From a virus (lineage: Duplodnaviria > Caudoviricetes), in IMG/VR virus record IMGVR_UViG_3300018405_000011: DNA of 64,000 nucleotides, one strand, 5' to 3'. The position numbers and the translations under genes were made by a program. Shown in pieces: positions 6,072 to 63,023 of this stretch. Each line of letters starts with the position of its first letter. The first letter of the stretch is position 1. The notes under the pieces were generated by a model. That model saw only the letters and a list, made by a program, of their open reading frames with translations, searched no databases and was not told where the DNA came from.

Positions 6072-6082
6072 TGATTAACCTC

Positions 6083-9410: not shown

Positions 9411-10013
9411 TTATGTGACGTATTTTTTTAACTGTTCAGTTAACAGGTTATTTCTTTCAACTAAAACCTGTTCTCTTTCTAGCGCTAACTTAAGTTGACG
9501 GGCATAGGTGTCGCGATAGTTAACGTTCGCTTGCCTTGCCACTTCTAAGTCCGCGTGTCTCGAGAAACTAACGGAATCAGCAATCAGGCCGGTCATTACC
9601 TTACCCGTGGAATTAATCCCGATATTCGCATCAAGCAATTCCTTTATTGCTGTTACGGTATCAGATAAGTCCATGTCGTTAGGCAAAGCACCTAAATCAA
9701 ACGTGACAAATGTTCGACTATATGGAACGGATTTTGTTGTTGGGAAACTAAGGATGTAACTCGAAGGAACACGTATGGGCGCTTCCGTGTTTGACAATAG
9801 CGTAATAATGTTTTCGTTATTACGCAGGTCACGCAGATAGTCGCTCGTACTTAACCCATGTGGGGCATAGTAAACCGCATAGATATCGACGCCCTCGGCA
9901 TTAAGGGCTTCGAAACCTTCAATCGATTCACAAATGTAAGTGGCCCCAGCCACGACCGTAAACGGCGTCTGGAGCTCATACGTTCCCACGGCTAAATGTG
10001 GAGGGGTAGCCAT
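9411..10013 (-). CDS. putative virion structural protein
   Basis: 200-aa ORF, 1-bp spacing from the upstream gene; context only. Confidence 0.4.
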   Translation of the reverse strand: MATPPHLAVGTYELQTPFTVVAGATYICESIEGFEALNAEGVDIYAVYYAPHGLSTSDYLRDLRNNENIITLLSNTEAPIRVPSSYILSFPTTKSVPYSRTFVTFDLGALPNDMDLSDTVTAIKELLDANIGINSTGKVMTGLIADSVSFSRHADLEVARQANVNYRDTYARQLKLALEREQVLVERNNLLTEQLKKYVT

Positions 10014-10014
10014 A

Positions 10015-11310
10015 TTAGATAGCCTCTAGGTAAGATGCACGTGTTGCCATGCGGTAAACAATATTGTTATCAGCCTTTTCTAAGAAACTGATACCTGAGA
10101 TTTGGTTTCTCGTAATACCTGTAGGTAAAACCTGCGTGCCCGTGTCGACTTCGGCGGCTCGCGCTAAACTGTCTAAGGTACTAATAATAGACTGAGTAGC
10201 TGCACTGACTCGGTTAATAGACTGGTCATTTAAGGCAATGATAGTGTAGTCAGGGAATAGTGCCTCAAAACTTTGAACGTTTACGTCATTCGTGTCACCG
10301 GCCAGTACAAAGACTGGTAAAGCACGGAAGAGTAAAGTAATGCCTTCACCTTGTCCTAGAATGTCTCCAGTATCACGCCCAATAAGAATTGGGTTAATTA
10401 AGGAAACCAGTTCGTTGAACTTAAACAGTGGACGCATCATGCTGTCGATACCAGGACCAGCACTTAAAGCAACTTTATTCCATAAAGGGACTAGATTAAA
10501 AACATCCAATGTTTGAATGTCGGGAAAGTATTCTTTCCACTCGTCCACCGTATATGGAGTTTCAGACTCCAAGTAAGTTCTGATAGCTTCTAAGGTCTTA
10601 TCTGTACGAAGCGCATCTTTACCATACCCCAGCACATACCATACTGTAGTAAACTGATTATTCAGGTTCGCTGGGTCATTCCACTTTAATGAAAACGTTG
10701 TGATTTCAGTAGGCTTCTCTTCCAGCGTCGCGGTATTTAATGCGTTTAACTTATTGATTTCCGTATAAGCATTAAGTGCAGCGAGTGCTCCAGCATAACC
10801 TTGATATAAGTTAGTAACTGGGCTACATGGAGGAAGTACTAATGTTTCAGAAGGTTCATACTCTTCTAAAAAGGCAGTGTTAGAAAACCATATCTCAAAG
10901 TTAGTAACTTCAAGGTCGGTATGCGTGCAGTTTAAAGACTGAGGTAAAGTAAAGCCATTCTCAGTAATCAAATTACCAAATGCAAAACCACTTAACGTAC
11001 TATCCGCATTGGTAGAGATAAAATCGATTAACGTCCCATTCGCTGGGATAAAGTCATTACGGATTTTGTTAATCAGCAATAACAAAGGTAAGCAGTCAGC
11101 CGCATCCAGCCCATCGACATCCTCACCAGAAATGTCTTTAGAATAAAAGACCGTAAGTTCTAAGCCCGGTGCCGTATCATCAGCGATGTACTGCTTCTTT
11201 CGACTGTAGGTACGGGCAATCGTACTGAGCTCGCCCAGTGCCGCAACCGCGTTGGGCGCATTGTTGGCATTAGACGGTATTTCAATAAAGCCCTTGATTG
11301 TTCTTGACAT
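10015..11310 (-). CDS. putative virion structural protein
   Basis: 431-aa ORF with GGAG RBS; context only. Confidence 0.4.
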   Translation of the reverse strand: MSRTIKGFIEIPSNANNAPNAVAALGELSTIARTYSRKKQYIADDTAPGLELTVFYSKDISGEDVDGLDAADCLPLLLLINKIRNDFIPANGTLIDFISTNADSTLSGFAFGNLITENGFTLPQSLNCTHTDLEVTNFEIWFSNTAFLEEYEPSETLVLPPCSPVTNLYQGYAGALAALNAYTEINKLNALNTATLEEKPTEITTFSLKWNDPANLNNQFTTVWYVLGYGKDALRTDKTLEAIRTYLESETPYTVDEWKEYFPDIQTLDVFNLVPLWNKVALSAGPGIDSMMRPLFKFNELVSLINPILIGRDTGDILGQGEGITLLFRALPVFVLAGDTNDVNVQSFEALFPDYTIIALNDQSINRVSAATQSIISTLDSLARAAEVDTGTQVLPTGITRNQISGISFLEKADNNIVYRMATRASYLEAI

Positions 11311-28445: not shown

Positions 28446-31400
28446 TTAGTCGGTCATCTTAACTACGCCGTTTACACGGTTAGTTGCAGGACGCTTGGTT
28501 GCAGAGGTAGGTTTACTTACACTGCTAAGATATCCAGGCATGTCAACTAAGGCTTGATGAATCGCGTCAAGCTTCTCTAAAGAAGCCGTTTGGTTTGCAA
28601 TCATCACTTCTCGTTGCGCGTATGCCTTCTCTAGTGCACCCATCTGTACATCGAGTGCTTTAGCGGACTCTTTAGCGGTTGCAGTTGCCTGCGCCTGAGC
28701 TCTCTCTTTTTCCATAACTGGATTAGGGGTCGCATTGGTTGATGGAGCCGTATCTAAAGGCTTATTGTCTTCAACCGATTTTGGAATCAATGTCGAACGA
28801 AGTGTATCTTGGCCTTCTAGTGTGGTATCAGAAGACTCTTTCTCCGCCGCTATCTCATCCTTAACAATGGCTTTCTCTTCCTTCGCTAAATCGGATTTGA
28901 CATTCCCGCCTACTAGTGTCAATGGGTCGATGGTATCTGCCCACTGTGCTGAAGTCACACGGACTTCCCAGTGCAAATGGTCTCCAGCAGAAGCGCCCGT
29001 GTTCCCCACATAACCAATGACTTGACCTTGTTTAACTCGGTCACCCATGGCTAAACCTACCGCAAAGTTATCCATGTGAGCATAGCGAGAAGCCATCCCG
29101 TTTTCATGTTTTAGATAAATAACCTTACCATAACTCTTAGAGATGTACAGACGGTATATAATACCATCAGCCGCAGCCACAATCGGCGTACCTTTAGGAG
29201 CAGCAATATCTACGCCATTATGCATTTTACGGGCCCCCGTGATAGGGTGTACGCGCATGCCATAAGGCGAGCTAATTCTGCCCTCACATGGCATAATCAT
29301 CCGTATGCTGCCTCCAGTTGCTTTAGCTGACGCCCCAACAATAGCAGAGTCTAAGCCGCCTTTTGCCGCGAGCTGTCCTGTAGAGGAATAACTGCTTGGC
29401 TTAGGTGCGGTATTTGCGCCATACTGAGTAACCGGACTTTTTGCTTTCATGTAGTCAGTTGCAGGTCTAGTGGTCTCCGATGAGTTTTCACTAGGCGCGG
29501 TGTTAAACTCTCCTTCGTATTTCTCATCACCTTTACCCATGGAGGCGATGTTATGAATCGCAATGCTAATGTCCGATGGCATAACCGGACTACCTTTACC
29601 TGGGTAAGGGGACATGGTGTTGTTCCATGGCAGTTTACCTCCAGTATAGTTAGCAGGTGAGGCTAAAGCCGTAGCAAACTCAGCTTTACGCTCCTTATCT
29701 AAGGCACTGTCGATTTCCAATAAGTCAATCGATTTATCAATCCCTTTAGACAGATTTAAGTTCACCATAAACACCGGGAAGAATCGGCGTGTAAACCACT
29801 CACCCCATCGTTGTAAGTCATAACTGCTTTCCATGTCTACGCCAAATATCTTCGCGTAGCGACTTACTGCGTCGCCTACAGATAGTGCAAACGTAGGACC
29901 ACGTGAAGTAAAGGAAACTTCATCAATCGCGTCAGATTCCATTTCTCGGATTTTAACTACGTCGTCCATGTCTTCGGGGTTAATACCGTACATAAGGAAA
30001 CGTAATCGTTCCAGTTCTTTTGGCTTAGAGCGTTTAGAGAAATAGCTATAGACTTCATACCCAGCATAAGCAAGTCCACCTACCGTAATGGCGGCGGCGA
30101 TAACTGGGGCACCTGCGACACCAGCAATTGCTGCAGCTCCTGTAGTCAGTAATTTCTTACCTCCCCACTTAGCGGCAGCCATAGCAACCGGTGCCGCTCC
30201 GCGTACCAAATTTAATCCCTTACCAACTAAGTTTTTAGCGCCACCCAGTATCTTACTCATGAACCCCTTTTTACCTGGAGTCTTACGGCCTGGTCCATCC
30301 CCTGCCGCACCGGTCAAGTCACCGAGGATATCACTAGCAGCTTCTCCAGTGGCCGATGCCTTATTAAAAGCAAACCAGGTAGCAATGGTAGTCCCAATAC
30401 CTTTTAAGGCTTCCATGAGTCCACCGAAGCCAGAAGTAATACTTCCGATAAGTGGCATTATAAAACTGAGTAAGCCACCCGAGGATTTCTCTTCTTTCTC
30501 TTCGGTGTCTACAGCAGCAGTTGGCTCAGCAGCACTGTCTTCACTACGTGAAAGAATATCTTGCCATGAGTTATCCCGTATGCCATCGTCATCTCTATCA
30601 GCATCGAGGTTCATGTCTGAGTAAACACTTTCTCCCTCTAATGGCCAACGGCGACGCATATGGTCATAGATTTTAGTGATAACGTCTGAGCCGCCGCCTT
30701 CGCCATAACCCATTTTGTTAATGGTAATACCGCCCATTACCATGTCTTTAATGCCAGACATGAAATCGTAGGTTCCAGAAACAATACGGTTACCTTGGTC
30801 AATAGAGAACGCTGCAAGACGAGACGCTAAGTCCATCCCTGTAGTAGTGATGTTTTTAGCTAGTTGAACTAAACGGTTACCGCCAATTGGCGTACCGATA
30901 TTATCAACCAATCCTGTCACTAAGTCATCATTGCTGATAATCACGTTACCTGCTGCATCCAGTACTTCACCGTCGATATCTTCGGCTTTATATATCGGCT
31001 TACCAGTCACGGCAGAAAAGTAACTCCCGTTCTTTAATAATAGCGCCTGTAGACGCGGGCGGGTTTCTCCACGTACGTAGATATCCCTTACGCGTTTAGT
31101 GATGGCGTCGTATCCGGCTTTTGGTAATGACATTAGCTTAGAGACCAGCATGTTTTGAAAACCGATGGTATTTAGCAGTTTGTCTTTAACAAAACCTAAC
31201 CCTTTATTAAAGAGTTCAGTAATGTTTTCACCTGTGGCTAGATAGATTCCGTCATCAACATCACTTTGAGTAATGACCACGTTTCCATTTGCGTCAACGA
31301 TTTCACCGTCGATTTCATCGATTGAAAAGATAGGTTTCCCAGTCTCTTTGTTTCGATAAAAGCCTTTCTTTAAGAGATTGGCACGAATGGCAGGTTCTTT

Positions 31401-33845
31401 ACGTCCCGCTACATAAACGTCGGAGTCACCGGGTTTACGTCGCCCCGTCACTGACCCAAGAATAGTTCCTATAGCACCTGCACCTGCTGTTGTAAAGTCG
31501 GCGATGCCGCCATACCAGCCACGTGTAAAGTTACCCATCCCACTAAGCGTGGATTCAATGATGCCGCCAATCCCTCGTTTACGTTTAGGCATCGAACCAT
31601 CAGCCGAACCCTCACCTCCACCTACACCGGCTTCCATTCTCAGGATACCGCCCAGTATAGCATCTAGCAATTGAATTTGGTCACTAAAACCACTGCGTGT
31701 AGTTTCAAGCAATTCCAGTTCAGCGTCTTGTGTACGTGTAGAGATATGAACCGGTAATGACGATACCCCATTCATGTCTACCATGAACTGACTTAAATCA
31801 CTATTACCACCTGAAGCTACAGTAGGACGCTGGGCCACAAATGACTCTGCTACGGTATACGCATCCGGTGATTCATTGCCGTAGGCCATGCGTGCCGCAG
31901 TTGCTTGGTCGACTTTTAAATCGCCGTACTTATTACGTCCTACCAGTCCCATAGATTTAAGAACATCTAACTGTCCGCTGTTTACAGCAAAGTTTAACAT
32001 TTGCTGGTTTTCGCGCTGACCTTTAGCAAGCTCTTTCTGGATGCGCGCCCCAGATAGATTGCGCTGACTTAGATTCCCTTTAGATTGGTTAATCATGGAA
32101 AGGATTTCTGAGGTAACTGCTTCGTCCCCATAATCCATCTCTTTTAGGCTTTCTATGTTAAACGCTTTTCCTTTTTGAGACTGTCCCAGTAATACGGCAC
32201 GTAAAGCCTCATCCGCTTCCGGTGAAAGCTCTACTCCAGACCCTACGCCTAGTAATCTTACCAGGGCATCGGCGTAACGATTACGGCTACGCGTATCATC
32301 ACCGAATATAGTTTTCTGGAGCTGTTGCTTAGCTTCACTTTCACGGACAATACCACCTTCCTCGAAGGAGTACATTTGACGTTCAGCGCTTTGCCCTGTT
32401 CGGATTTGTTCGAGTTCCTGTAACTGTCTAGATAAGAAGGAAGGGATAATGTCAACCAAACTGCGGCGTTCTAGTTCACTCCATGTAACTGGGGCGGCTA
32501 ACTCATCCAACTTAGGCTGGTCTATCTGTAGCCCTTTAACGGTATTACGAGGAATGATATCCCGTAGCCCATCCTTAATAAAGGACGCATCTAACGCCCC
32601 TAAGGCAGGTACCTTATCCAGTATGCTCTGTGGAAGAACCTTACCATCCCAGTTACGTAACTCCTCGTTAAAGATAGAAGGGAAGTTTTCGAACAAATAC
32701 ATGAGTTCATTAGACTTCGTCTTTAACGAGGGAGAGCGCTCTATGTACTTTCTAAGCTTATTACCGATACCTTTACTTAACTTAACCCCTACGGTACTCT
32801 GTAGCACATCACCGGCTAGCGAACCCCCTAGACGAAGTTTTTCTTCTAAAGACATGTCACCTAAGTCTAAGCCATCGGAAGAAATAATGTCCGTGATAGT
32901 GCCCATGTTCGTTGCTAAATCTTGAACAAAGCCATCGATTTTCTTACGGATGTTTTCTTTGGTTTTACCCAGAAACTTATCCTGATACTCTTCGATAGTA
33001 TCCCCTACATTACCATAGAGCCTTTGTTTCTGAGACTGCATAAACCCTTCAGTCGTCTGGATTTTTACAGCTTCAGGTAATGCAGTGTTATGAACAATAG
33101 ACGCTAGTTGTGCATCTACGTCACGGGAATGCCCTGTAAAGATACGCAATAGGTCACGCTGAGCAAAGTATTGTAAATGTTGAAGCTCGAGTGATTTCTG
33201 TTGCCATTTAAAGTTGACAGTGTCATTATAGCCGACGAGTCGACTGACTTGGTCAAGTACCAGACGTGTCGATTCTAAAGAGCTGCTATTAAACAAGTCC
33301 GCTTTAGCTTCTACCGCGGCTGCACGTTCGCCACTCAGTGCGTTCTGTTCGACAAGAGCACGCTGTGCCCCAAATACCGATTTAAGGGTACTGTCGATTA
33401 ATAGACGGTCGGCACTATAAGCACCTTTTGCTTCTGGTATGGTTTCTTCATCTGGGCTCCAGCTTTTTAGAAGATCTTTTATCTTCCCATCGACTAAGTC
33501 TGGTAAACTGTCGGCCTTTTTTGCAATGGCTTTTCTAAGGTCTTTTAGTGGTTTTTCTAGCTGCTTCATCGAACCATTGTATAGGTCCATAAAGAAAGCT
33601 GCGCCTTGGTCGGCTGCGCCTAATGCGCTGCTATACCCTTCTGGCAAAGCATTTTTTGCAATGATGCCAGCATGCTTAGAAACCGTATTCTTTTCAGTTA
33701 TTGAGTCCTTTGCCCCTAGGGCTATTGACTCAATAACTTTTCTTGTTCCCAGCTCTTTGGGCGTCTTTGGTTCACTTGGCTGGCTGTCATCCAGTGAATC
33801 TAAAATAGAATCCAAATCATCCAAATCGAATTTATCGTTTGCCAT
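28446..33845 (-). CDS. tape-measure-like tail protein with C-terminal M23 peptidase (phiKZ gp181-like position)
   Basis: 1799 aa, helical, with repeated 'YV.G...P.....L...G.Y...TGK.I...DIDGE..D..GN' units. M23 motifs 'HNGVD', 'YAHM' and 'HLHWEV' lie at about 28959-29300. Confidence 0.75.
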   Translation of the reverse strand: MANDKFDLDDLDSILDSLDDSQPSEPKTPKELGTRKVIESIALGAKDSITEKNTVSKHAGIIAKNALPEGYSSALGAADQGAAFFMDLYNGSMKQLEKPLKDLRKAIAKKADSLPDLVDGKIKDLLKSWSPDEETIPEAKGAYSADRLLIDSTLKSVFGAQRALVEQNALSGERAAAVEAKADLFNSSSLESTRLVLDQVSRLVGYNDTVNFKWQQKSLELQHLQYFAQRDLLRIFTGHSRDVDAQLASIVHNTALPEAVKIQTTEGFMQSQKQRLYGNVGDTIEEYQDKFLGKTKENIRKKIDGFVQDLATNMGTITDIISSDGLDLGDMSLEEKLRLGGSLAGDVLQSTVGVKLSKGIGNKLRKYIERSPSLKTKSNELMYLFENFPSIFNEELRNWDGKVLPQSILDKVPALGALDASFIKDGLRDIIPRNTVKGLQIDQPKLDELAAPVTWSELERRSLVDIIPSFLSRQLQELEQIRTGQSAERQMYSFEEGGIVRESEAKQQLQKTIFGDDTRSRNRYADALVRLLGVGSGVELSPEADEALRAVLLGQSQKGKAFNIESLKEMDYGDEAVTSEILSMINQSKGNLSQRNLSGARIQKELAKGQRENQQMLNFAVNSGQLDVLKSMGLVGRNKYGDLKVDQATAARMAYGNESPDAYTVAESFVAQRPTVASGGNSDLSQFMVDMNGVSSLPVHISTRTQDAELELLETTRSGFSDQIQLLDAILGGILRMEAGVGGGEGSADGSMPKRKRGIGGIIESTLSGMGNFTRGWYGGIADFTTAGAGAIGTILGSVTGRRKPGDSDVYVAGRKEPAIRANLLKKGFYRNKETGKPIFSIDEIDGEIVDANGNVVITQSDVDDGIYLATGENITELFNKGLGFVKDKLLNTIGFQNMLVSKLMSLPKAGYDAITKRVRDIYVRGETRPRLQALLLKNGSYFSAVTGKPIYKAEDIDGEVLDAAGNVIISNDDLVTGLVDNIGTPIGGNRLVQLAKNITTTGMDLASRLAAFSIDQGNRIVSGTYDFMSGIKDMVMGGITINKMGYGEGGGSDVITKIYDHMRRRWPLEGESVYSDMNLDADRDDDGIRDNSWQDILSRSEDSAAEPTAAVDTEEKEEKSSGGLLSFIMPLIGSITSGFGGLMEALKGIGTTIATWFAFNKASATGEAASDILGDLTGAAGDGPGRKTPGKKGFMSKILGGAKNLVGKGLNLVRGAAPVAMAAAKWGGKKLLTTGAAAIAGVAGAPVIAAAITVGGLAYAGYEVYSYFSKRSKPKELERLRFLMYGINPEDMDDVVKIREMESDAIDEVSFTSRGPTFALSVGDAVSRYAKIFGVDMESSYDLQRWGEWFTRRFFPVFMVNLNLSKGIDKSIDLLEIDSALDKERKAEFATALASPANYTGGKLPWNNTMSPYPGKGSPVMPSDISIAIHNIASMGKGDEKYEGEFNTAPSENSSETTRPATDYMKAKSPVTQYGANTAPKPSSYSSTGQLAAKGGLDSAIVGASAKATGGSIRMIMPCEGRISSPYGMRVHPITGARKMHNGVDIAAPKGTPIVAAADGIIYRLYISKSYGKVIYLKHENGMASRYAHMDNFAVGLAMGDRVKQGQVIGYVGNTGASAGDHLHWEVRVTSAQWADTIDPLTLVGGNVKSDLAKEEKAIVKDEIAAEKESSDTTLEGQDTLRSTLIPKSVEDNKPLDTAPSTNATPNPVMEKERAQAQATATAKESAKALDVQMGALEKAYAQREVMIANQTASLEKLDAIHQALVDMPGYLSSVSKPTSATKRPATNRVNGVVKMTD

Positions 33846-33942: not shown

Positions 33943-35391
33943 ATGAAACCGAAATTACTTCCCTTTAACATCAGTTTTGTCAGGGATGTCGATAATACCT
34001 TTGCCGGTCTATTGCCCGTGCAGTCCCTACAGCTCTTCGAAGGAAAGAATGGCGACTTTAACCCACAGGGGTTATACTCTAATGTTATTTTTGGTCGTCA
34101 GGGCGATAGTGCCCGTGAAACCAAAGAATCTTACATTAATCTAAAGGTTCCTATTTTCCATCCCTTATATTTTAAAGAACTGATTGCCTTAAAGCAACTG
34201 TATCTAGACATACTCACACGTCAAGGCTATGCAACCTGGGATGCTGAAGAAAAAGACTTTGTACGCGCTGACATCATGACAGGGGAAACCGGCTTTGCAT
34301 TCTTTACTTCTCATTTTAACGAGATTGAGTTTAAACGCAATAAGTCACAGCGACGTGACCTGCGTATCGACCTGTTAGAGAAATATCGCCATCAGGCTTT
34401 TATTAAGCGTCTCTTTGTCATCCCTGCCGGTATTCGTGATATCGAAATTACAGAAGATGGGCAACCTAAAGAAGAAGACATTAACCCACTGTATCGACGT
34501 GTGATTTCCGTAGCCAATACCATTAACGTGGATTTTGAGCAGCGTAATAGCTCACTCTTAGACGAAGCTAAAGCTAACTTACAGAAAGCCGTTGTAAACA
34601 TCTACGACTACATCTTTAACATGTTAGAAGGTAAGCGAGGGATTCTACAGGGTAAGCTAGCCTCACGTAAAATCATTGGCTCTACACGTAACGTACTTTC
34701 GTCTATGGAAGTGGGTTCGTCTTATCTAGGCGATGAACGCCAGCCCGGTTTAAACACGACGATTATTGGCCTGTTTCAATACATCAAAGGAAACGAAGCC
34801 TATGTTACGGAATACGCATTCCGTAAGCTGTTTCTTTCTGACTTATTTGACGAGTATGAAGACCCGCGTCTGATAGACCGAGAATCACTTAAAGCGGTAG
34901 CTGTCACCCTTTCTGACAAAGCTAGAGAGAAATGGTTAACCAGTGAGGGATTAGAAGGCATCATCAATGGCTTTGCAGATGCCACCCTTAGACATAACCC
35001 AGTTACTATCGACGGTAAGTATTTAAGACTCATCTATAATGACGGAAAACAATATCGGATTATGCAAGACATCCGTGAGTTACCGGAAGGATACGATAAG
35101 GCGTATGTTACCCCGATGTCATGGGCAGAGATGTTCTATTTATTATCTAAAGATAACATTAAAAAGAACATGGCGTTCTGTACCCGGTACCCAGTAACGG
35201 GACTAGGCTCTATTTATGCATCAGAGATTTATGTTAAAACAACAGTCAATGGCTTACTGTTAGAAGAACTGGATGCGGACTTTAACCCTACGGGCAACAA
35301 AGCCCTAGAATTTCCGGATACAAAAAATAAACTGCCTTTCTTTGATACCATGGCGGTTAGCCCATATATGCTAAAGCCATTAGGTGCGGAT
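33943..35391 (+). CDS. virion RNA polymerase beta'-like subunit, exon 1
   Basis: 'GLYSNVIFG', 'IPAGIRD', 'GKRGILQGK...RNV', 'TRYP' are beta' motifs. Ends in LGAD, the first half of the DFDGD catalytic motif. Confidence 0.9.
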
Positions 35392-35889
35392 AAAATTAAT
35401 GTAAACCATTAGAAGTCCGCCTGCGCAGTAATGTGCAGTAAATAAACTCCTCTAATTGCGGGAAGTTCTTGTTAGGTCTCAAGTACTCCCTTTACATGGA
35501 AACATCGTAAAGGTTAAAGTTAACGACTTTGGTTTTATAGTGATAATCTTGAGAATAGAGAAAATCGACGCAGCGAAGTTCCTAAGTCTATTAACAGATA
35601 TGGAATGAGTTCAACGACTATCGAAAGCTTAACTCCAGGAGAAATACCCGGAGGGATAATAGCCTAAGGTCAACATGCCTTAGGGGAAGCGAGTAGAGTA
35701 CGCCCACAAGTGAATGGTGGGGCTGTGATGGCTTAAATGGAAATGGGGAGCCCCTATAGCGCGGTAACAGTTCTATAGGGTGATGATATAGTCTCTTCGG
35801 CGAAAGCCCTTCCTGGGGTACTCCAGGTCGTCTAGCGAGAGCTAGAGCTGTATAACAGTAGGTGCGTTACGAGCACCTAGAAGACAAAG
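35392..35889 (+). ncRNA. group I self-splicing intron, ORF-less (498 nt)
   Basis: Exon U35391 precedes the intron and the intron ends in G35889. P1: GCGGAU pairs with GUCCGC (35415-35420) with a U.G wobble. P10: CAUUAGA (35407-35413) pairs with exon-2 UUUGAUG. Core elements: P AAUUGCGGGAAG (35454), Q AAUCGACGCAGC (~35562), R GUUCAACGACUA (~35609), S GAUAUAGUC (~35785). P7 GACUA/UAGUC, P9 GGC-GAAA-GCC. Confidence 0.93.
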
Positions 35890-36060
35890 TTTGATGGAGA
35901 TGTACTATCCTGTACACTCATTAATAGTGATGAGGGGGTTGCCGAGGCGAAAGCTAGACTGGCTGCTAAATCTACCTACATCTCGCCTAACGGCGGTTTA
36001 ACGTATAACCTCACAACGGACGTCAGCGACCTTGTGTTAAAAATAATGACGGGTGATTAA
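35890..36060 (+). CDS. virion RNA polymerase beta'-like subunit, exon 2 (56 aa, FDGDVLSC...IMTGD)
   Basis: In-frame joining restores LGADFDGD and gives a 539-aa spliced protein; not present in the ORF track. Confidence 0.9.
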   Translation, partial: FDGDVLSCTLINSDEGVAEAKARLAAKSTYISPNGGLTYNLTTDVSDLVLKIMTGD

Positions 36061-36062
36061 CC

Positions 36063-39000
36063 ATGACACTGATTAATGTCGATAATTTCATGCGACGCTT
36101 AGGGGCAAGGGAGAACCTACTGCTTACTTCAACCCCGCTAGTTGACATGATTAACTTAACGATGCCTAAAGGTACGTTATTGCATTATGTACCATTAAGT
36201 CCTGACGACCGAGGGTTCCGTGCAGACAGTTTACTTGCTGTACACTGGCCTACACGGATTCGCGTTAATCTAATTACAGAAGGGCTTTATCCTAACGGTA
36301 GAACACAGAACATTCAGTTTAACGCAATGAAGTATACTAAAGAGTACTTTAAGCGTCAGCCCGGTTTAAAGCGCAGTCGTAATTTAGAGCGTGACATTAT
36401 GGATGAACGTGACATGGTCGTCTTAGACTATACGTTGATTCCGCGTATGGTGCGCTATGCTCACAGTGTAGATGTGTATCAAAACTTCTGGGCTAACATG
36501 GCAGAAACGGTCATCCAGCAGATTAACCGAGTTAATGGACGTCGCCCACAGTTCATTCAGATTCCTATTGGTGGACATTGGATGACCGAAGCGGAGTTTA
36601 AAGTAAACTTAGAAGGTATCAGCGTTTCACACCGTGAACGACTTAGAGACCCAGCACTTCAATGGGTACTGGAAATCTACCGCATGTTAAAAGGGGCACC
36701 GAGCCTCATTGAGAAGATTACATCGGAAGACGTTTACTTTATATTCACCGTGGACACTAAGTCAGTCTTCTTGCCATTATCGGTACTTTATACTTTTGCA
36801 GATACCGATGCGCTTGCCGGGGCTAAGTTTCATGACCTGTTAGAAAAGCTTTTGATGACGCGCACGGTTTCTGACGAAGAAGCGGGGGCGATTTCAAAAG
36901 AAGCCGATACAGAAGATGCAAGTGATGAAGCCGTATCAAAACTGATGCCACCTGCATTACAGCAGCAGCTAGGGGAAATGGTAGAAGTCGGGTTATTAAC
37001 GGCGGCTCAGCAGAAACGCTATGCAAACGCAATTGTTGCTATGGCAGAGATTCCATCTCCGGATGGTAAAACTACTCTGGCTGAGTTTGCTACTGTTACT
37101 CCAGAAGACACGGTCATTGACCCAGACATCAATGTGCCGATTGATACTCCCATAGTACCAGAAAAAGCATTAAAGTCTACAGTCGCGAACATGAAGTCTA
37201 AGTATGTGCGTGAAGTCATGGACAAAGACATCGCTAATGTGTTCCTATCGTTAAACCGAGGCGGGGTTATCTTACGCGACTATAATGTCACTAAAACCGC
37301 AGACGCGTTAGAAGAAACGCAGACGCTGGAGATTACACTCCTGCCGGTGGTAGGGCGTGAAACCACCTTTAAAATAGAACTTCCTGTATTTAATGAAGAC
37401 GGAACGTTTATGGTAGGGGGGATCCGATACAGCATAGATAACCAAAAAACCGACATCCCGATTCGTAAGACAAAATCGAACCAAGCAGGCATTACTTCTT
37501 ACGCGGGTAAAATCTTTATCAATCGAAGTGGGTTAGCTAAGAACGACAGTGACCGATGGTTGCGTAAAGTTATCCGTGAAACTGCCATGAGTACGGCGGA
37601 TGAGCGAGTAACTAGCTTACGTTATGGCACTAACGCCGTACCTAACGTACTGCTGCCAAGAGACTACACTGCACTTATGGTTGACTACAGTGGGTTTAAG
37701 TCTGGTGACCTAACCTTTGACTTTGTATACAGTGGACGCATTGAGCGTTACGGTAAAGAAGTTGTTTCTCGTTTAGAGAAGAAAGGTTCAGTTATCTGCG
37801 GCACCTATAAAGGTGAGCCAATGGTCATGGATGTAAATGGGTTCATTACTGGTAAAGACTTACCTGGACTAGACATCTTAGGTACGCTAGGTGGTAGCTG
37901 GGGTAAACGCCCTGGTGACATTGCTGTCTTTAAGTCGGGTCGACGTGAAGTACCGGTTATTTATTTCATTGCCTACCATTTGGGTTTGGACAAGACTCTA
38001 CGTAAGTTAAAGGTACCTCATCGCTGGGAGACCTTAGACAAACGTTTAAGTCCAGGACTTAATGAAATCGCGGTAAACTTTGCCGATGAACGCATATACA
38101 TTACCGTATCAGACCCGCTACAAGCGATACTGTGGAATGGCTTAGCCGACATGGAGGACATGACGCGGCGCCTTAACAGTGCCGAGTTTAACCGTAAAGA
38201 CGGTTGGATGGCTTCCTTAAGTCATTACGGGGCGAATAAGTGGCATACTGATAACTGGACATTAATGAACGATTTGTTTTTAGACCCTATCACGTTAGAA
38301 GTATTGCGTGACATGAAAGAGCCTGAAAACTTAATTGACTTGTTTATTCGTGCTGCCGACCTGGTTAAGACCAATGATGCCCCTCGTGAATCCGACCCTA
38401 AATACATGCGTATTCGTGGGCTAGAACGTGTATCTGGACTTATCTATCTTGCCATGTACGAAGCTATTGCTGAGCAACGACGTAAGCCTAACGCGCGTAA
38501 TGAACCTATTACCATCGCGCCTACGGAGATATTGCGACGTCTAAATGAAGATGCATCCGTGCAACTTGTGTCTGAGATTAACCCTATCCATGCACTAAAG
38601 GAACAAGAGGCAGTTACCCTATCAGGAACAGGCGGACGTACCGCTCGTACACTGGTAAAACGTAACCGTGTCTTTGACCAAAACGACTTAGGAATTTTAA
38701 GTGAAAGTACCCCGGACTCTGCTAAAGTAGGGATACGTGGGTTCTTAACCCCAAATGCTAAAGTCCAGAGTCTTCGTGGTATGTATGGCGAGTATGATCC
38801 AGATGACGGTTCGAGTTCATTACTATCTACAACCGCATTAACGCTACCTGACATGGACCGTGATGATGGGAAACGCGCCGCTTTAGGGGCAATACAGCAG
38901 TCAGCGGTTGTCCCTACGGTCGGCAGTGAACCCATGCCGTATCGTACTGGATATGACGCTGTTATTGCTTCCCGCCTATCTGACTTCTTTGTCTTTAGGG

Positions 39001-39998
39001 CAAAGCAAGATGGTGAAGTCGTTAAAGTTACCGATAATGTCATTCAGGTAAAATACGAAGACGGGAGTAAGGAAGGTTACCGACTGGGTACAAAACATGG
39101 CGTTGTAGCCGGGGAACTCATCCCTCATAATTACGTTACGGATAAGGTAAAAGGAAGTCGGTTTAAAATAGGATATGTATTGGCCTGGAACAGTGGTTTC
39201 TTTACCCGTGATTTCTTTAACCCAGAAAACGTCATTATGTTGTCGGGTGTACCCGCTGTTGTCGCTCTAAAGGAAGGTAACGATACGTTAGAAGATGGTT
39301 CAGCTATCAGTGATGCCTTTAGAAGAAAACTGATGACTTCAGTTTCTAAGAATAAAGGGATTATGGTTGACTTTGACCAGGAAATTGAAGGATTAGTTTC
39401 AGTAGGGGACGTAGTTGAGTTTGATACTAAACTGGTAACCATTAAGGAAGCGGGTACTTTAGGGTTAGAGAAAACCGATGCGGCTCTATTAGCCCTAAGT
39501 AAACTGTCCAGTCAATCTCCTAAAGCTAAAGTAGGGGGTAAAGTTTCCCGCATTGAAGTCTTCTATATGGGAGACCCTTCCGAAATGAGTCCTTCATTAA
39601 AAGCTTTAGTTGAAGCAGACAATGCTCGACGTGAGAAAGAGGTCAAGGACTTAAATCGAAGCACGGCTGGTAAAACCGGACTCGTACGTAAACCTACGTT
39701 TATCTCAGGTGAAAAACTGGTTCCGGGTAAAGTGATTATCAGTATTTATATTGATATGGAACTGGAGTCGGGCATCGGTGATAAGTCAGTCGTGGCTAAC
39801 CAGCTTAAAACGGTGCATGGGCGTACACTGGAAGGGATTAACCGAACCGAAGACGGGCGAGACATTGACCTGATATTCGGCGCTCAATCAGTGAATAACC
39901 GAATTGTATTATCCTGTATTATCCAAGGGGTAATGAACATGACGGTGCGGAAAAAGAATCAGCTTTTAGCCGAAGCTTATCTGGCAGCAGGGGAGTAA
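36063..39998 (+). CDS. virion RNA polymerase beta-like subunit (phiKZ gp178-like)
   Basis: 1311 aa; 'ESTPDSAKVG', 'EDGSAIS', 'GDKSVVANQLK', 'DIDLIF' correspond to conserved beta regions. Confidence 0.88.
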   Translation: MTLINVDNFMRRLGARENLLLTSTPLVDMINLTMPKGTLLHYVPLSPDDRGFRADSLLAVHWPTRIRVNLITEGLYPNGRTQNIQFNAMKYTKEYFKRQPGLKRSRNLERDIMDERDMVVLDYTLIPRMVRYAHSVDVYQNFWANMAETVIQQINRVNGRRPQFIQIPIGGHWMTEAEFKVNLEGISVSHRERLRDPALQWVLEIYRMLKGAPSLIEKITSEDVYFIFTVDTKSVFLPLSVLYTFADTDALAGAKFHDLLEKLLMTRTVSDEEAGAISKEADTEDASDEAVSKLMPPALQQQLGEMVEVGLLTAAQQKRYANAIVAMAEIPSPDGKTTLAEFATVTPEDTVIDPDINVPIDTPIVPEKALKSTVANMKSKYVREVMDKDIANVFLSLNRGGVILRDYNVTKTADALEETQTLEITLLPVVGRETTFKIELPVFNEDGTFMVGGIRYSIDNQKTDIPIRKTKSNQAGITSYAGKIFINRSGLAKNDSDRWLRKVIRETAMSTADERVTSLRYGTNAVPNVLLPRDYTALMVDYSGFKSGDLTFDFVYSGRIERYGKEVVSRLEKKGSVICGTYKGEPMVMDVNGFITGKDLPGLDILGTLGGSWGKRPGDIAVFKSGRREVPVIYFIAYHLGLDKTLRKLKVPHRWETLDKRLSPGLNEIAVNFADERIYITVSDPLQAILWNGLADMEDMTRRLNSAEFNRKDGWMASLSHYGANKWHTDNWTLMNDLFLDPITLEVLRDMKEPENLIDLFIRAADLVKTNDAPRESDPKYMRIRGLERVSGLIYLAMYEAIAEQRRKPNARNEPITIAPTEILRRLNEDASVQLVSEINPIHALKEQEAVTLSGTGGRTARTLVKRNRVFDQNDLGILSESTPDSAKVGIRGFLTPNAKVQSLRGMYGEYDPDDGSSSLLSTTALTLPDMDRDDGKRAALGAIQQSAVVPTVGSEPMPYRTGYDAVIASRLSDFFVFRAKQDGEVVKVTDNVIQVKYEDGSKEGYRLGTKHGVVAGELIPHNYVTDKVKGSRFKIGYVLAWNSGFFTRDFFNPENVIMLSGVPAVVALKEGNDTLEDGSAISDAFRRKLMTSVSKNKGIMVDFDQEIEGLVSVGDVVEFDTKLVTIKEAGTLGLEKTDAALLALSKLSSQSPKAKVGGKVSRIEVFYMGDPSEMSPSLKALVEADNARREKEVKDLNRSTAGKTGLVRKPTFISGEKLVPGKVIISIYIDMELESGIGDKSVVANQLKTVHGRTLEGINRTEDGRDIDLIFGAQSVNNRIVLSCIIQGVMNMTVRKKNQLLAEAYLAAGE

Positions 39999-48148: not shown

Positions 48149-50182
48149 TTACGCATCGAGGTCGCTACGGCGACGAGCGATGATGTTAAATTGCTGAACA
48201 GTGCGCATAACATCTGCATAGACTTCAATGTCCATGTTAGAGCTATATCCACGCAGTTCGTCGGCGGCGGTCTTATAAGACGTTCCACGAATCGTCACGC
48301 GACCGTCGTAACGGTTAGCGACTTTACCATCGAACGTTTCTTCTACACGTTGATGATATTGGGAATCTGTCTCTTTAGAACCACCTGACGTCTGTGCCCA
48401 AGTCAGTGCTGCTTGTTTAGTCACATCCACCATGATTTGCATCACGATGTCTGAGTTTAGTACCGAAGTACTGTTCTCATAGATGGACTGAATAGCCGGC
48501 CAACCGATTTCAGTACGGCCTAGGTATTCAACACCGTTGACGCCATAATCCCAGAAGTTGTCTTTTGGTGTCTGTGGCACATACGTGTTAGTCACACCTG
48601 ACAACTCAGTAACCAGTTTTGCTGGGTACTCGTCATAAGACTCAACCGACTTCATAATGCCGCTACCAGCACCTAGGTACTTAGCACGTTTATGGATTAA
48701 GTCAATGATGAGTGGTACGGTACGTTTACGTAAAGAAGACGTCCATGTACCTACAGAGCGAGTAATGGTAGCACGGCAGACACCCGTACCATAGACGCTA
48801 GACTCTGGAGTCAGACGTGCGGCGTTAAGTAGCACTAACGCTACTGAGCTTTCAGCAGCAATGTCATTTGGAACCGTACCTTCGACATGTGTACAGATAC
48901 CAACGTGGATGTCCGGTCTTTGACCTAGAGTCGCCAACATTGATTTCTTAGTGTCTAATGTAAAGCCAGTGTCGTACATTACTGAGAATGGGAATCGCAA
49001 CATGTCCTTTACAGGGTTCAGTGGGTTTTCCCAACCAGTTTCAAGCTCACTGCGTACAAGATCGTCGTACGTAGCATCTGTCATGTCACCGTCATCACCA
49101 CCTTTTAAGTAGTGTGTTGTTGCGCTATTTAGGGCAACAGAGTCCGATGATAGACGCACGGTTTCGTGCTCGATACCTTCCCAGCTAATCGCGGTAAATG
49201 GGTTGATTAGATGTGCGTCGGCAATGGCCGTGCCCGTTTCTGCTTCTTCAGTTACCTTAATGGCATCGAGGATAGTTTTTAGGTTATCTTCGTAGAAGTA
49301 GATTTGACCAAAAGGACCATAGCGCTTGACTTGACCCGCTGTAAAGTCTTGCCAGTCTTCCACTAGACGCTCTAGACCAAATGTTTGACCCGTGTTCTTA
49401 TTAGTAACACCTGGCTTAAAGCTCACATCAATCGAACGGTCAGCATTAATAGAAGGAACCACGACAGGTGTACTTTCTGCAGTTTCACGCTCAACGATCG
49501 CAAAGCGGTACATCATGGTGTTTTGGTCTTCTACTACAAATGCATCGGCTGGGTCAGCCGTTTTCAAATGTGGTACCGACATACGCATGCCGATGTTATT
49601 GCCGTATTTACCTTTAGAAGACGCTTCGAATTCTAAAATAGGGTAAATAGTCGATTCTTCACCGACTTTACCCACTAAGGTACCCGGAGTTTGATTTGGA
49701 ATCGCACCGGCTTCGAGTTCATCGACTGGGGATACTGTCCAGCGGATTAAAGAACCATCAAAGGTTACACCACTGTTGGTAATAGGGCCGTTCTCATCCG
49801 AAGTAACAGTGCCATCGGTAGCACGTACGTATTCTTCGAATGTTTGAACTACGACTTCTGCGCTTAGTACAAAGCGCCCTTTCTTAGCCGTTTCACTTAG
49901 GATACGGTGGACATAAAAAGCATTACCCGCAGCGTTAGCTGTGAGTGCGGCTACGGTTTGGTGTGAGAAGTATTCTTTCAGTTCGTCTGCGGCATCTTTA
50001 CCATACATACGTAGGAAATCTGCGCCAACCACCAACTCATCCGTCTCAGGACCTTTTGGTGTACGAAGGAAAAAGCGTGGTAAGTGGATAGGCAACTCGT
50101 CGCGCTCTGCAGGTAACGCACGGGTTGACAAATCTTGCCAGCCTTTGAATACTGCTCTTGGAGTACTTTTATTAAGAGACAT
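48149..50182 (-). CDS. contractile tail sheath protein (phiKZ gp29-like)
   Basis: 677 aa; 'PIHLPRFF', 'YLKGGDDG', 'PFSVMYDTGFTLDTKK', 'QSIYENSTSVLNS'. Confidence 0.8.
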   Translation of the reverse strand: MSLNKSTPRAVFKGWQDLSTRALPAERDELPIHLPRFFLRTPKGPETDELVVGADFLRMYGKDAADELKEYFSHQTVAALTANAAGNAFYVHRILSETAKKGRFVLSAEVVVQTFEEYVRATDGTVTSDENGPITNSGVTFDGSLIRWTVSPVDELEAGAIPNQTPGTLVGKVGEESTIYPILEFEASSKGKYGNNIGMRMSVPHLKTADPADAFVVEDQNTMMYRFAIVERETAESTPVVVPSINADRSIDVSFKPGVTNKNTGQTFGLERLVEDWQDFTAGQVKRYGPFGQIYFYEDNLKTILDAIKVTEEAETGTAIADAHLINPFTAISWEGIEHETVRLSSDSVALNSATTHYLKGGDDGDMTDATYDDLVRSELETGWENPLNPVKDMLRFPFSVMYDTGFTLDTKKSMLATLGQRPDIHVGICTHVEGTVPNDIAAESSVALVLLNAARLTPESSVYGTGVCRATITRSVGTWTSSLRKRTVPLIIDLIHKRAKYLGAGSGIMKSVESYDEYPAKLVTELSGVTNTYVPQTPKDNFWDYGVNGVEYLGRTEIGWPAIQSIYENSTSVLNSDIVMQIMVDVTKQAALTWAQTSGGSKETDSQYHQRVEETFDGKVANRYDGRVTIRGTSYKTAADELRGYSSNMDIEVYADVMRTVQQFNIIARRRSDLDA

Positions 50183-50397
50183 CTATGAAATCCTCAAGAC
50201 AGTTTATAAACTTGTTTGCTCTAACGTTAAAGCGGCTAAATCCCATAGGGAATACCCTAGGGCGTAACTCCGCCACGAGTCACTTTTTAACAGACTGATT
50301 AGTGTTCACCTTATTACAGCAGGGTAAACTCTATAAGATTGGTATTAAATAAAAACAGGCCTAGCTAATCTGTTTTTCTTACACTCTGGATATAATC

Positions 50398-51330
50398 ATG
50401 ATTGATACAGCATATGAAACTACCTACGGGCGTCAGTTTAAAAACCTTTTTACTGAAGCCATGGATTTCTCCATTAAAAACATTCTAAGACGCAGTGACA
50501 ATATTCTTCCTTTCGGAGAGAAAGAAAACCTCTTTAAAATCTCTCCTGAGATTACGACTGATGAACTCCTGCCTTTCCGTTTACCGGTTTCTTTTACTTA
50601 CCGAGACAAGTTCTATACGGTAGTTGACACACGTGCATTCGAAGGGGCAGACGGTAAGATTCGTCAGCAGCGTGAACTTGATGCTTTAGCGATGCGTGCT
50701 AAATACATGCACAGTTGGATTGAAGAGCCAAGTCTCTATGAATCTGTCTTACCCGAACTGTCCATTCTTTTTGCGGAATGGATGGTTCAATCCATTACTC
50801 AACGCCACGGTCCTACCATTGCCCAGCAAGAAATTATTCGCATTTATCTAGCATGTTATTACCGTACCCTTATGTTTACGGCGGACGACTTAAAACAAGT
50901 CGATGCAGATTATCTCGGTGAAGTCCTATTTAAGTTTGCAGTGACTCAACTTAAAATGCCGCGTGACTTTGTTACTAGCGTTATGGAAGATGAGAACTTT
51001 ATTAAGGTTCTTAACAACCTGATTGCCGTAGGTAAAAGCGACTTAAATAACTGGTTGACTGGGCTTAACCTCTATCTAGATACACCGGCAATACGTTTAG
51101 ACAGTTCGGCGTTAATTATCCTGACGGTATCCGCGAGCTGGATGGGTTGGGGTGCACAAGACATTGCCGGTACGGCTATTGAGTATCCGCCTATGTTAGC
51201 CTACATGGCCAATATGGCGATGACCCTAGGGGTCTATCGACGCACCAAGATAGGAATGGCTGTAGAAGCCTGTAAGCGTCGACGTGTGAAAATGGAGACC
51301 TTAACCAGTTGGGCAAAGGAAATCATCTAA
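50398..51330 (+). CDS. virion protein (phiKZ gp28-like position)
   Basis: 310 aa, divergent from the sheath; synteny. Confidence 0.5.
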   Translation: MIDTAYETTYGRQFKNLFTEAMDFSIKNILRRSDNILPFGEKENLFKISPEITTDELLPFRLPVSFTYRDKFYTVVDTRAFEGADGKIRQQRELDALAMRAKYMHSWIEEPSLYESVLPELSILFAEWMVQSITQRHGPTIAQQEIIRIYLACYYRTLMFTADDLKQVDADYLGEVLFKFAVTQLKMPRDFVTSVMEDENFIKVLNNLIAVGKSDLNNWLTGLNLYLDTPAIRLDSSALIILTVSASWMGWGAQDIAGTAIEYPPMLAYMANMAMTLGVYRRTKIGMAVEACKRRRVKMETLTSWAKEII

Positions 51331-60739: not shown

Positions 60740-61690
60740 ATGAGTAATTGGCAAGGCGGTGGCGGTAACTGGGGCGGTAAACGCGCTCCTAAGCCACGTC
60801 CACAACACGGTCCAGAGCACGAACTAGAGCCACGCATTGAAGCTATCTTACGCAAAGACCGTAATGTCCCTAAGAACTATCACAGTCCAGGTGAATCTCC
60901 ATCGCGTGAAACCATACTGTTAGAAGGTGACCCAGAACGTCAAAGTATTGAAGTACCAAAAGCGGCAATGTTGTTTAAGCAAGCAGGCTACCCACTGAAC
61001 CACGACCAGTATCCACCGATTAAGAAGTTTAATTCTGAATACCCAGATTCAAACTACTACTTCGTACACAGCGGTCCTGTATTCTGGAAGAAAGACGAAA
61101 ACTTCCGTCATATCCCGACATACTCACGTTATGTCATCGACCGCTTCGGTCGTGTACTCAATGCCTGCACTGGTGTTGCTGTACAACCTGAAAACGATCG
61201 TATGTATAAACTGGTGGCTGATGGTCCTGCCTTTAGCAATAACCCATACTGGGCAGCTAAAGACACACTGCTGATGTTAGCATTCAGTACCTTACCTGAA
61301 AACTTCATTGACTATGGCGGTGGTACATACAGCCATGAGCTTAAAGTTGATGCAGAGAAAGGTGAGTACACATGGGTTGCTCGTCCAGCAGTGAAAGTCC
61401 GCAATGGCGAAACTGGTCAAACGAAGTTATATCGTAATTTCCCTGAGTTTATTGAATGTGCGGTAAAAGACTTCCAGCAAGCCGGTGATTTACGACGTCA
61501 AATCCGTACACCGATTGATGGCGTTCTGACCGTAGGTCCGTTCCAAATCAAGCTAGCAGAAGAAACGGCGATGCCTGAACTTCCAGTGGCTAGCGAAAGC
61601 AGTTCTACTGCGGCAGTCAGTGAGCCTGCTCCAGCAGCAGCCACACAAGAAGAAACCGTCGATATTGATTTCGATGATTTAGAATTCTAA
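60740..61690 (+). CDS. NUMOD4/degenerate-HNH-like protein with acidic SSB-like tail
   Basis: 'FRHIPTYSRYVIDRFGRVLN' is NUMOD4-like; no intact HNH; ends 'DIDFDDLEF'; strong AGGAG RBS. Confidence 0.55.
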   Translation: MSNWQGGGGNWGGKRAPKPRPQHGPEHELEPRIEAILRKDRNVPKNYHSPGESPSRETILLEGDPERQSIEVPKAAMLFKQAGYPLNHDQYPPIKKFNSEYPDSNYYFVHSGPVFWKKDENFRHIPTYSRYVIDRFGRVLNACTGVAVQPENDRMYKLVADGPAFSNNPYWAAKDTLLMLAFSTLPENFIDYGGGTYSHELKVDAEKGEYTWVARPAVKVRNGETGQTKLYRNFPEFIECAVKDFQQAGDLRRQIRTPIDGVLTVGPFQIKLAEETAMPELPVASESSSTAAVSEPAPAAATQEETVDIDFDDLEF

Positions 61691-61745: not shown

Positions 61746-63023
61746 ATGAAAATATACTTAGTAGGTGGTGCAGTACGTGACATAGCAATGGGCTTAAGTC
61801 CAAAGGACTTTGACTATGTGGCTGTTGGCGGTAATCCCGATTATTTTCAGGAATGGAAGATGGTCGGTAAAGACTTTCCGGTTTTTATTGAACCGGCACA
61901 TGGATGGGAAGTTGCATTAGCACGTAAAGAAAGTAAGACAGGACTAGGGTATACCGGTTTTTCTATAGAGTGGGAAGGGGTGACTCTAGAAGAAGATTTA
62001 GCTCGACGTGACCTGACCATCAATGCAATGGCGCAGGAAGTTGACTGGGAGCAAACGGTTGAGAAAGGGTACCCTATAACAACCGGGGATATCATAGACC
62101 CCTACGGTGGCTTAGACAGTCTTAAGAACCGATTGTTGCATCCGACCTCAGTGCGGTTCGAAGAGGACCCAGTGAGGCTATTACGCGCCGGGCGCTTTCT
62201 AGCACGGTATACTGAGTTTAAGCCGAGTGTCCAGTTAATCGAAGTTTGTAAAAGAATGGCGCGACAGGGTACAATGGGTGAACTTAATGCGGCCCGTGTA
62301 TGGAAAGAAACGGAAAAGGCCCTAACTGAGCACTTTCCAGTGAACTACTTCGACTTCATTACCCAGTTTGACTTTCCCTTTGTACGGTTCTTACGGGCAA
62401 TGAAACATACCCGTGAGGACAATGCTTATCATCGTGAAGAGTCTGTCTATGACCATACAATGATGGTATTAGCTCATGCCAGTCAAACCGATAATAATCC
62501 TAGGCTTAACTTTGCCTGCTTAATGCATGACATTGCTAAACCCTATTGTTATGCAACTCAAGGGAATGGACATGGACATGAAGAGGTAGGAGTAGGGATG
62601 GTTAAAGAGTTCTGCTCTACATGGAGTATACCTAAGGCATATCGAGATTCGGCCATTGCAGTTACACGTTACCACCAAATGGTACATTCTGCACTAGGAC
62701 GTAATGGCGATAGTCCGCTTAGACCACGCAGTGTTATGACTCTCTTCAATGGCATCCATGCCTTTAATCAACCCGATAATTTAGAGTTTCTACTGCAAGC
62801 ATGTTTCGCTGACCATTACGGACGCATTGGCGATGAGCCCCCAGCCGTTTATCGCAATAGCGAGTTTCTAAAGGAGTGTTATGCCGCAGCTTCGCAGGTT
62901 GACGCACAAGCTTTAGCCGCTCGTCTTATCGAGAAGGGGAACTGCGCAGGACACGTCATTGGTGAACGTATCAATGAAGCGAGATGTAAAGCTATCTCGG
63001 TGGTCCGTAACCAATGGGTTTAA
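61746..63023 (+). CDS. cca: multifunctional CCA tRNA nucleotidyltransferase with HD domain
   Basis: 'YLVGGAVRD', 'DFDYV', 'EDLARRDLTINAMA', 'EEDPVRLLRAGRF', and HD motif 'LMHDIAK'. Confidence 0.93.
   Translation: MKIYLVGGAVRDIAMGLSPKDFDYVAVGGNPDYFQEWKMVGKDFPVFIEPAHGWEVALARKESKTGLGYTGFSIEWEGVTLEEDLARRDLTINAMAQEVDWEQTVEKGYPITTGDIIDPYGGLDSLKNRLLHPTSVRFEEDPVRLLRAGRFLARYTEFKPSVQLIEVCKRMARQGTMGELNAARVWKETEKALTEHFPVNYFDFITQFDFPFVRFLRAMKHTREDNAYHREESVYDHTMMVLAHASQTDNNPRLNFACLMHDIAKPYCYATQGNGHGHEEVGVGMVKEFCSTWSIPKAYRDSAIAVTRYHQMVHSALGRNGDSPLRPRSVMTLFNGIHAFNQPDNLEFLLQACFADHYGRIGDEPPAVYRNSEFLKECYAAASQVDAQALAARLIEKGNCAGHVIGERINEARCKAISVVRNQWV

Follow-up and report, generated by a model that had tools for sequence, protein, structure and literature searches.

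An endonuclease-less group I intron between the catalytic aspartate codons of a jumbo-phage virion RNA polymerase gene

Within the 64,000-nt stretch of phage DNA analyzed here (the window, which covers 64 kb of the roughly 215-kb genome; IMG/VR record IMGVR_UViG_3300018405_000011), the virion RNA polymerase (RNAP) beta'-N gene is interrupted in the codons for its catalytic DxDGD loop. We consider it highly probable that the interruption, at 35392-35889, is a group I intron of the IA type that lacks an endonuclease and belongs to the lineage seated at the same site in phiKZ and Yong, and that only spliced RNA yields the full-length subunit. The comparisons below establish that it is an intron, where it begins and ends, that its structure is conserved and covarying, and that it is homologous to the phiKZ and Yong introns and occupies one common site with them; the coordinates are collected in Table 1.

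The reading frame on both sides supplies the most direct evidence for the boundaries. Read on from exon 1 without splicing, the plus-strand ORF at 33943-35412 ends ...MLKPLGAD and then KINVNH before its stop; 498 nt after the end of exon 1 and in its frame, TTT GAT GGA GAT at 35890 resumes the protein as FDGDVLSCTLINSDEG...IMTGD (FDGDVLSC...MTGD); this frame closes with its stop at 36060, and only two bases separate it from the ATG of the following gene. The intron thus lies between the codon of the first aspartate (GAT, which ends at 35391) and those for FDGD in the DxDGD loop. In a profile search with phrog_2986, a jumbo-phage RNAP profile of 539 positions labelled "RNA polymerase beta subunit", exon 1 covers positions 1-484 (E 1.7e-163) and exon 2 covers positions 485-538, and the two pieces are therefore exactly contiguous in the family, which bears out the preliminary description of a split RNAP beta' gene. 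An intron-less relative, the contig L002 (a Logan contig of SRR22535648), encodes an uninterrupted 539-amino-acid protein that is 88% identical at the amino acid level. Exons 1 and 2 of the window together comprise 1620 nt, the exact length of the L002 gene (5001-6620), and the spliced ORF aligns to it without a gap at 75% nucleotide and 88% amino acid identity; exon 1 is 88% identical to residues 1-483 of the L002 protein and exon 2 is 77% identical to residues 484-539. A 20-nt block across the junction, TTAGGTGCGGAT before it and TTTGATGG after it, is identical in the window and L002. Since GAT TTT GAT is obtained from no other junction, the intron is 35392-35889, and the exact junctions and 498-nt gap proposed earlier hold against this colinear, gapless relative. 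Excision leaves a continuous, conserved reading frame, both in the 1620-nt alignment and in the contiguous profile coverage. A second, independent public assembly contains the intron with 100% identity.

Table 1. Positions of the intron, its helices, the two exons and the neighboring genes (window coordinates; a slash separates the two strands of a helix)
Feature	Position	Strand	Remarks
Tail-associated protein (context)	28446..33845	-	1799 aa, Peptidase_M23 domain; phiKZ gp181 position and orientation
Exon 1 of virion RNAP beta'-N gene	33943..35391	+	483 codons, end ...PLGAD
P1	35386..35420	+	exon GCGGAU 35386-35391 / guide GUCCGC 35415-35420; 6 bp; U35391.G35415 at 5' splice site
Group I intron without endonuclease ORF	35392..35889	+	498 nt; RF00028
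P1 loop	35392-35414	+	contains P10 guide CCAUUAGA 35406-35413
P10	35406-35413 / 35890-35897		CCAUUAGA / exon 2 UUUGAUGG; 8 bp including 2 G.U
In-frame TAG	35410..35412	+	six codons into intron; ends unspliced translation; inside P10 guide segment
P2 hairpin	35421-35427 / 35432-35438	+	one compensatory G-C to A-U change vs Yong
P3	35447..35452 / 35745..35750	+	5' strand / 3' strand
P4-P5 with long P5 extension	35456..35573	+	35456-35470/35558-35573; 35477-35487/35539-35554
P6/P6a	35578..35606	+	35578-35582/35602-35606; 35586-35589/35596-35599; one compensatory change
P7	35616-35620 / 35789-35793	+	GACUA / UAGUC
Three P7.1/P7.2-type hairpins	35633..35734	+	35633-35639/35647-35653; 35663-35669/35678-35684; 35691-35694/35731-35734
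P8	35752..35780	+	35752-35762/35770-35780; three compensatory changes
P9	about 35798-35807	+	GGC-GAAA-GCC, GAAA-capped hairpin
Peripheral P9.x hairpins	within 35798..35889	+	e.g. 35831-35836/35841-35846; terminal G at 35889
Exon 2	35890..36060	+	56 codons and stop, FDGD...; first 8 nt form P10
Virion RNAP beta gene (context)	36063..39998	+	1311 aa, phrog_3148, phiKZ gp178 homolog; uninterrupted

The insert itself reads out as a complete group I ribozyme. The Rfam model RF00028 matches 35393-35810 on the plus strand over its full length (1-253) with 56.4 bits (E 1.2e-11), a score only modestly above the gathering score of 50, and this is the sole Rfam match in the whole 64-kb window; with the match at these coordinates the feature is present, and chance is no explanation for it. 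All the core helices from P3 to P8, including P7, could be placed, and covariation against the Yong intron supports them in this comparison of two sequences. Both sides have changed and still pair in 18 of the 104 predicted pairs, with statistics that are necessarily thin for two sequences; these pairs include positions in P2, P6, P7.1 (four), P8 (three) and P9.x (three). The segment preceding the 5' strand of P7, the conserved J6/7 sequence GUUCAAC, is invariant in the window, Yong and phiKZ. At the splice sites, the U.G pair in a 6-bp P1 and the terminal G that had been drawn from the sequence by eye are both present as drawn, the last intron base being G35889. The P10 pairing is likewise there, separated from P1 by one unpaired A, but it computes to 8 bp with two G.U pairs rather than the 7 bp first given.

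Subgroup IA introns are recognized by hairpins that lie between P7 and P3', and the preliminary description had placed about 130 extra nt in that interval. About 115 nt separate the 5' strand of P7 from the 3' strand of P3 in the window, and they form three hairpins of the P7.1/P7.2 type, with four, one and one compensatory changes relative to Yong (six in total). Such extra helices between P7 and P3' are also found in the IA introns of T4 td, nrdB and sunY, of Twort and of K-like Staphylococcus phages, and the P3-P7 core is 71-75% identical to Staphylococcus phage introns. The intron is accordingly placed in subgroup IA, where it may be of subclass IA2 or of another. One consequence of the conserved core was seen in read data: contig depth at 35598-35629 is far above that of the flanks in both freshwater and wastewater runs, and assemblies break there, because the core of about 30 nt from J6/7 to P7 is common to many different, unrelated group I introns of those communities.

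The host gene is the homolog of phiKZ gp180. Exon 1 is 36% identical to phiKZ gp180 end-to-end (E 4e-97), PLGAD ending both, and exon 2 can be aligned to the phiKZ exon 2; the homolog in Erwinia phage RAY is annotated as "vRNAP beta' subunit 1". The gene order of the window is that of phiKZ gp181, gp180, (gp179) and gp178, with the 1799-amino-acid tail-associated protein as the divergent gene upstream of beta'-N, and phiKZ gp178 and gp180 both carry the annotation of structural head protein. A PDB sequence search with the intron-less relative returned only a cellular beta' subunit, matched weakly over NADFDGD, and no virion RNAP structure that could prove the joining of the exons. The motif falls on the cellular NADFDGD and is the DxDGD loop, in which three aspartates hold the catalytic Mg2+ (PMC7598289). 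Neither a second copy of beta'-N nor any other DxDGD motif occurs in the 64 kb of the window, consistent with the expectation that no complete DFDGD-containing beta' gene would be found elsewhere.

From these pairings a conventional splicing pathway can be predicted. The pre-mRNA would fold such that the guide GUCCGC binds the six bases at the end of exon 1 to form P1 with its U.G wobble; an external guanosine would attack after U35391; P10 would then align exon 2, and the exons would be joined after G35889. The predicted spliced junction is GGTGCGGAT/TTTGATGGAGAT, and the spliced mRNA would be translated into a 539-amino-acid protein reading ...LGADFDGDV..., with PLGADFDGDVLSC as the peptide spanning the junction and PLGADFDGDVLSCTLINSDEGVAEAK as the predicted tryptic peptide of the virion protein. 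The unspliced mRNA, on the other hand, would give a product of 489 amino acids without two of the three catalytic aspartates (D2 and D3) and without the last 56 residues, and for this reason we infer that the full-length subunit comes from spliced RNA alone. The intron is presumably catalytically active and its removal presumably needed in vivo. The preliminary description had called splicing an "obligatory gate" on the polymerase; that is a sound inference, though such a gate would come with any intron that interrupts an essential gene and would imply no special regulatory device.

The site itself is already known, since phiKZ and Yong XC31 are occupied there, and here the precedent that the preliminary description saw in phiKZ-related phages proved to be exact. 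The phiKZ gp180/gp179 intron (NC_004629, about 186346-187788) lies in the same gene at the identical insertion, GAT/TTY between D and FDGD. The 490-amino-acid gp180 ends ...PLGAD at GGCGGAT/TAA and is followed by gp179 (HNH_3, 357 amino acids), then by an RF00028 match of 92.2 bits and then by exon 2; the intron ends ...CATAACG/TTCGACGGGGAC, and exon 2 opens FDGDTVSF... and runs to just before gp178. In the literature, gp179 counts as a homing endonuclease encoded by an intron of the virion RNAP operon (PMC10914365, PMC12676376, PMC11512511), a statement credited in PMC10914365 to Mesyanzhinov 2002; it is deletable (PMC12676376), and introns are listed in phiKZ gp55 and gp180 (PMC11512511). 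In phiKZ the intron measures 1443 nt, with gp179 in its P1 loop, whereas that of the window has 498 nt and no ORF; the phiKZ ribozyme, more compact, has neither the long P5 extension nor the P7.1/P7.2 block of three hairpins. The two have common core blocks and a common P1' context, and a 20-nt P9.x hairpin block, TCTAGCGAGAGCTAGAGCTG, is identical in both.

The closest relative of host gene and intron alike is Yong XC31 (MK308674, between QAX96132 and QAX96130), with 70.7% amino acid identity over exon 1. Among phage records, nucleotide similarity to the region is confined to four of Vibrio mediterranei phages vB_VmeM-Yong, and in them the intron is matched and the exons are not; the intron core, at the same site, is 82.8% identical by megablast and 81.7% identical over 383 nt by blastn. 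In XC31 the homologous gene stops at ...GLGAD, the junction is GGTGCGGAT/.../TTTGATGGCGAT, and the insert of 1430 nt holds a 315-amino-acid HNH_3 ORF between the 5' splice site and P1', with the same GUCCGC guide just after that ORF and a ribozyme core of 69.9 bits against RF00028. The peripheral helices are the same as in the window, although the Yong 3' tail after P7' has diverged, and the intron is not annotated as such in its record. The Yong HNH_3 protein and phiKZ gp179 are distant homologs (25% identity, E 6e-10).

From these comparisons, the window intron is an endonuclease-less form of the phiKZ gp179-type lineage. Its only internal ORF is a 50-amino-acid TTG frame with no Pfam match, in agreement with the ORF-less character noted at the outset, and it encodes no homing endonuclease of the kind that defines a mobile intron. 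The endonuclease-bearing state is found in phiKZ, Yong and several metagenomic loci, and the window retains CCATTAGAAGTCCGCCTGCGCAGTAA, the counterpart of the 3' end of the ORF in Yong; on both grounds the sequences suggest that the P1 loop once held an HNH gene and has lost it, and that the ORF-less state does not reflect a failure to gain one. A tblastn search of the 64-kb window with the Yong, phiKZ and L002 endonucleases found no convincing homolog. A free-standing endonuclease acting in trans was considered at 61103-61303, where a weak tblastn match falls in a 316-amino-acid ORF without a Pfam match, and was rejected; the neighbor of this ORF is a PolyA_pol/HD protein. That adjoining ORF, of 425 amino acids at 61746-63023 on the plus strand, has PolyA_pol head and HD domains like those of a CCA-adding enzyme or poly(A) polymerase.

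How well the intron splices is a separate matter from its descent. The public runs comprised four freshwater DNA runs, which are possible sources of the phage, and four wastewater runs labelled RNA-Seq that are probably DNA. No spliced junction was present in the reads or contigs of these eight runs, probably all of DNA, and in three 151-nt contigs, likewise of probable DNA origin, exon 1 continues unspliced into the intron. The missing junction is neither support for splicing nor a refutation of it. An ONT-cappable-seq long-read transcriptome of phiKZ likewise contained no spliced reads for the homologous intron under its conditions (PMC10914365), which we treat as missing evidence and not as evidence against splicing. 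These same phiKZ data could be read differently, with the intron retained by descent and its splicing in vivo being inefficient, conditional or dependent on a helper, such that it acts as a real throttle on the virion RNAP and not as a neutral passenger. The RF00028 score of the window intron, lower at 56.4 bits than the 92.2 bits of phiKZ and the scores of several other same-site introns, would fit such a throttle. We think this unlikely: the core helices are intact and covarying, phiKZ makes a functional virion RNAP and its gp180 is annotated as a structural head protein, and low read depth is sufficient to explain the missing junction reads. In 201phi2-1, a known intron was supported by only two reads (PMC11512511).

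More radical readings would deny that splicing occurs at all. Were the intron a dead remnant, beta'-N would be a pseudogene or only the truncated 489-amino-acid protein would be made, and it is indeed this product alone that gene callers report, with no spliced RNA seen in the public runs (probably DNA). This is very improbable given the conservation of exon 2 at the protein level, where it is 77% identical to the intron-less relative and fits the family profile, and given that all the pairings required for catalysis are present with compensatory changes; moreover, this core gene has no second copy within the window, and phiKZ and Yong XC31, both viable phages, have the same arrangement. The notion that the exons are translated as separate polypeptides that assemble later, with the locus a split gene and not an intron, draws on the fact that jumbo-phage RNAP subunits are naturally encoded in several genes (PMC7598289). 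It strikes us as more improbable still. The 5' end of exon 2 has neither an in-frame start codon nor a ribosome-binding site, the insert is a full group I ribozyme, and the known split sites follow the DPBB domain, with none inside the metal-binding loop (PMC7598289).

Similar interruptions are widespread at this motif. Our survey covered 80 IMG/VR loci (L005-L084), which came from an alignment-based search, a search of IMG/VR with the single protein having yielded no close relatives, and the 120 best database homologs of exon 1 (P0003-P0122). About 47-50 of these 120 best homologs (roughly 40%) end within or right after the motif, the ends falling after D, after DxD or after DxDGD. Among the IMG/VR loci, 14 of 80 are interrupted in the DxDGD codons, and RF00028 scored above cut-off in 11 of the 12 interrupted loci that were scanned with Rfam. 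With the junctions set by the rule that the exon ends in U and the intron in G, at least five insertion positions are found within 15 nt: GAY/TTY, GAY T/TY, GAY TT/Y, after DxD and after DxDGD. Every long insert encodes an HNH_3 endonuclease, and the short ones (about 340-510 nt) are ORF-less. Two loci carry twin introns around a micro-exon, of 6 nt (TTCGAT, encoding FD) in L069 (IMGVR_UViG_3300021440_000015, 4947-5700) and of 12 nt (TACGACGGCGAT, encoding YDGD) in L007 (IMGVR_UViG_3300031933_000228, 4956-6845). Both L069 introns end in CUGGACAAUA(A/G)G, and they look like paralogs adapted to neighboring sites. For the other site-A introns, in L025, L071 and L084, a simple search gave no clear P1 guide of 5-6 bp; these may belong to different lineages or have shorter P1 helices. 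The 15-nt stretch of virion beta'-N that encodes DxDGD is an intron hotspot.

Related introns occur in neighboring and paralogous polymerase genes as well. Rfam finds three group I introns in phiKZ (NC_004629), at 50168-50489 (gp55/56), 65391-65617 (gp71-73/72) and 186396-186717 (gp180/179). The gp55/gp56 intron, which bears an HNH gene, interrupts the same catalytic loop in the paralogous non-virion RNAP beta'-N; it differs from the window intron in the gene and in its insertion two codons upstream, at N/ADFDGD. Over about 50 nt at their 3' ends, the gp56 and gp179 introns are nearly identical, suggesting that a single intron lineage has passed between the paralogous beta' genes of the virion and non-virion polymerases of phiKZ. 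PhiPA3 gp210 has an HNH-bearing group I intron in a chimallivirus virion RNAP gene at conserved active-site aspartates (PMC11620839), and from this case it is known that such endonucleases can act in phage-phage competition (Birkholz et al. 2024, Science; PMC11620839). That intron sits in the beta gene, the gp178 homolog, and not in beta'-N, and its site, PDMDRDD/G, is uninterrupted in the window (38840-38870) and occupied in L002.

Occupancy forms a mosaic across these relatives. In the window, beta'-N carries the ORF-less intron and beta is intact; in L002, beta'-N is uninterrupted and beta carries, after PDMDRDD (9440-11103), an HNH_3 group I intron that comprises an HNH_3/NUMOD1 endonuclease and a group I core of 73.2 bits; and in Yong XC31 both genes contain introns. 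The homing cycle, with its repeated invasion, decay of the endonuclease and loss, would be expected to leave such a pattern. A more speculative possibility, which we raise tentatively and consider doubtful, is that by splitting the target TTAGGTGCGGAT/TTTGATGG the ORF-less intron protects the polymerase gene from the same-site HNH endonucleases of co-infecting relatives. If so, it would be the defensive counterpart to the "weaponised intron" of PhiPA3 gp210 and not merely a decaying passenger, and the at least five insertion positions and the twin introns would mark the DxDGD stretch as a battleground of intron lineages.

For annotation, the practical lesson is that the gene model for this phage and its relatives should join 33943-35391 to 35890-36060. 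As anticipated in the preliminary description, gene callers miss exon 2, the public calls consisting of the 489-amino-acid product and then the next gene; automatic annotation thus yields a protein with an incomplete active site, and the same error stands in GenBank for Yong XC31 and phiKZ. The case opens no new question; it adds an endonuclease-free member to an intron lineage common to Pseudomonas, Vibrio and freshwater chimalliviruses. In Yong XC31 the beta gene is split after ...QKVD, at the equivalent of window beta residue 463 (L001 6023-7510; MK308674, about 130357-131844), by an insert with a 234-amino-acid ORF that matches a DUF723/CapR-like zinc ribbon and a sub-threshold RF00028 score of 43.3 bits, and all the Yong beta pieces are annotated in GenBank as hypothetical proteins.
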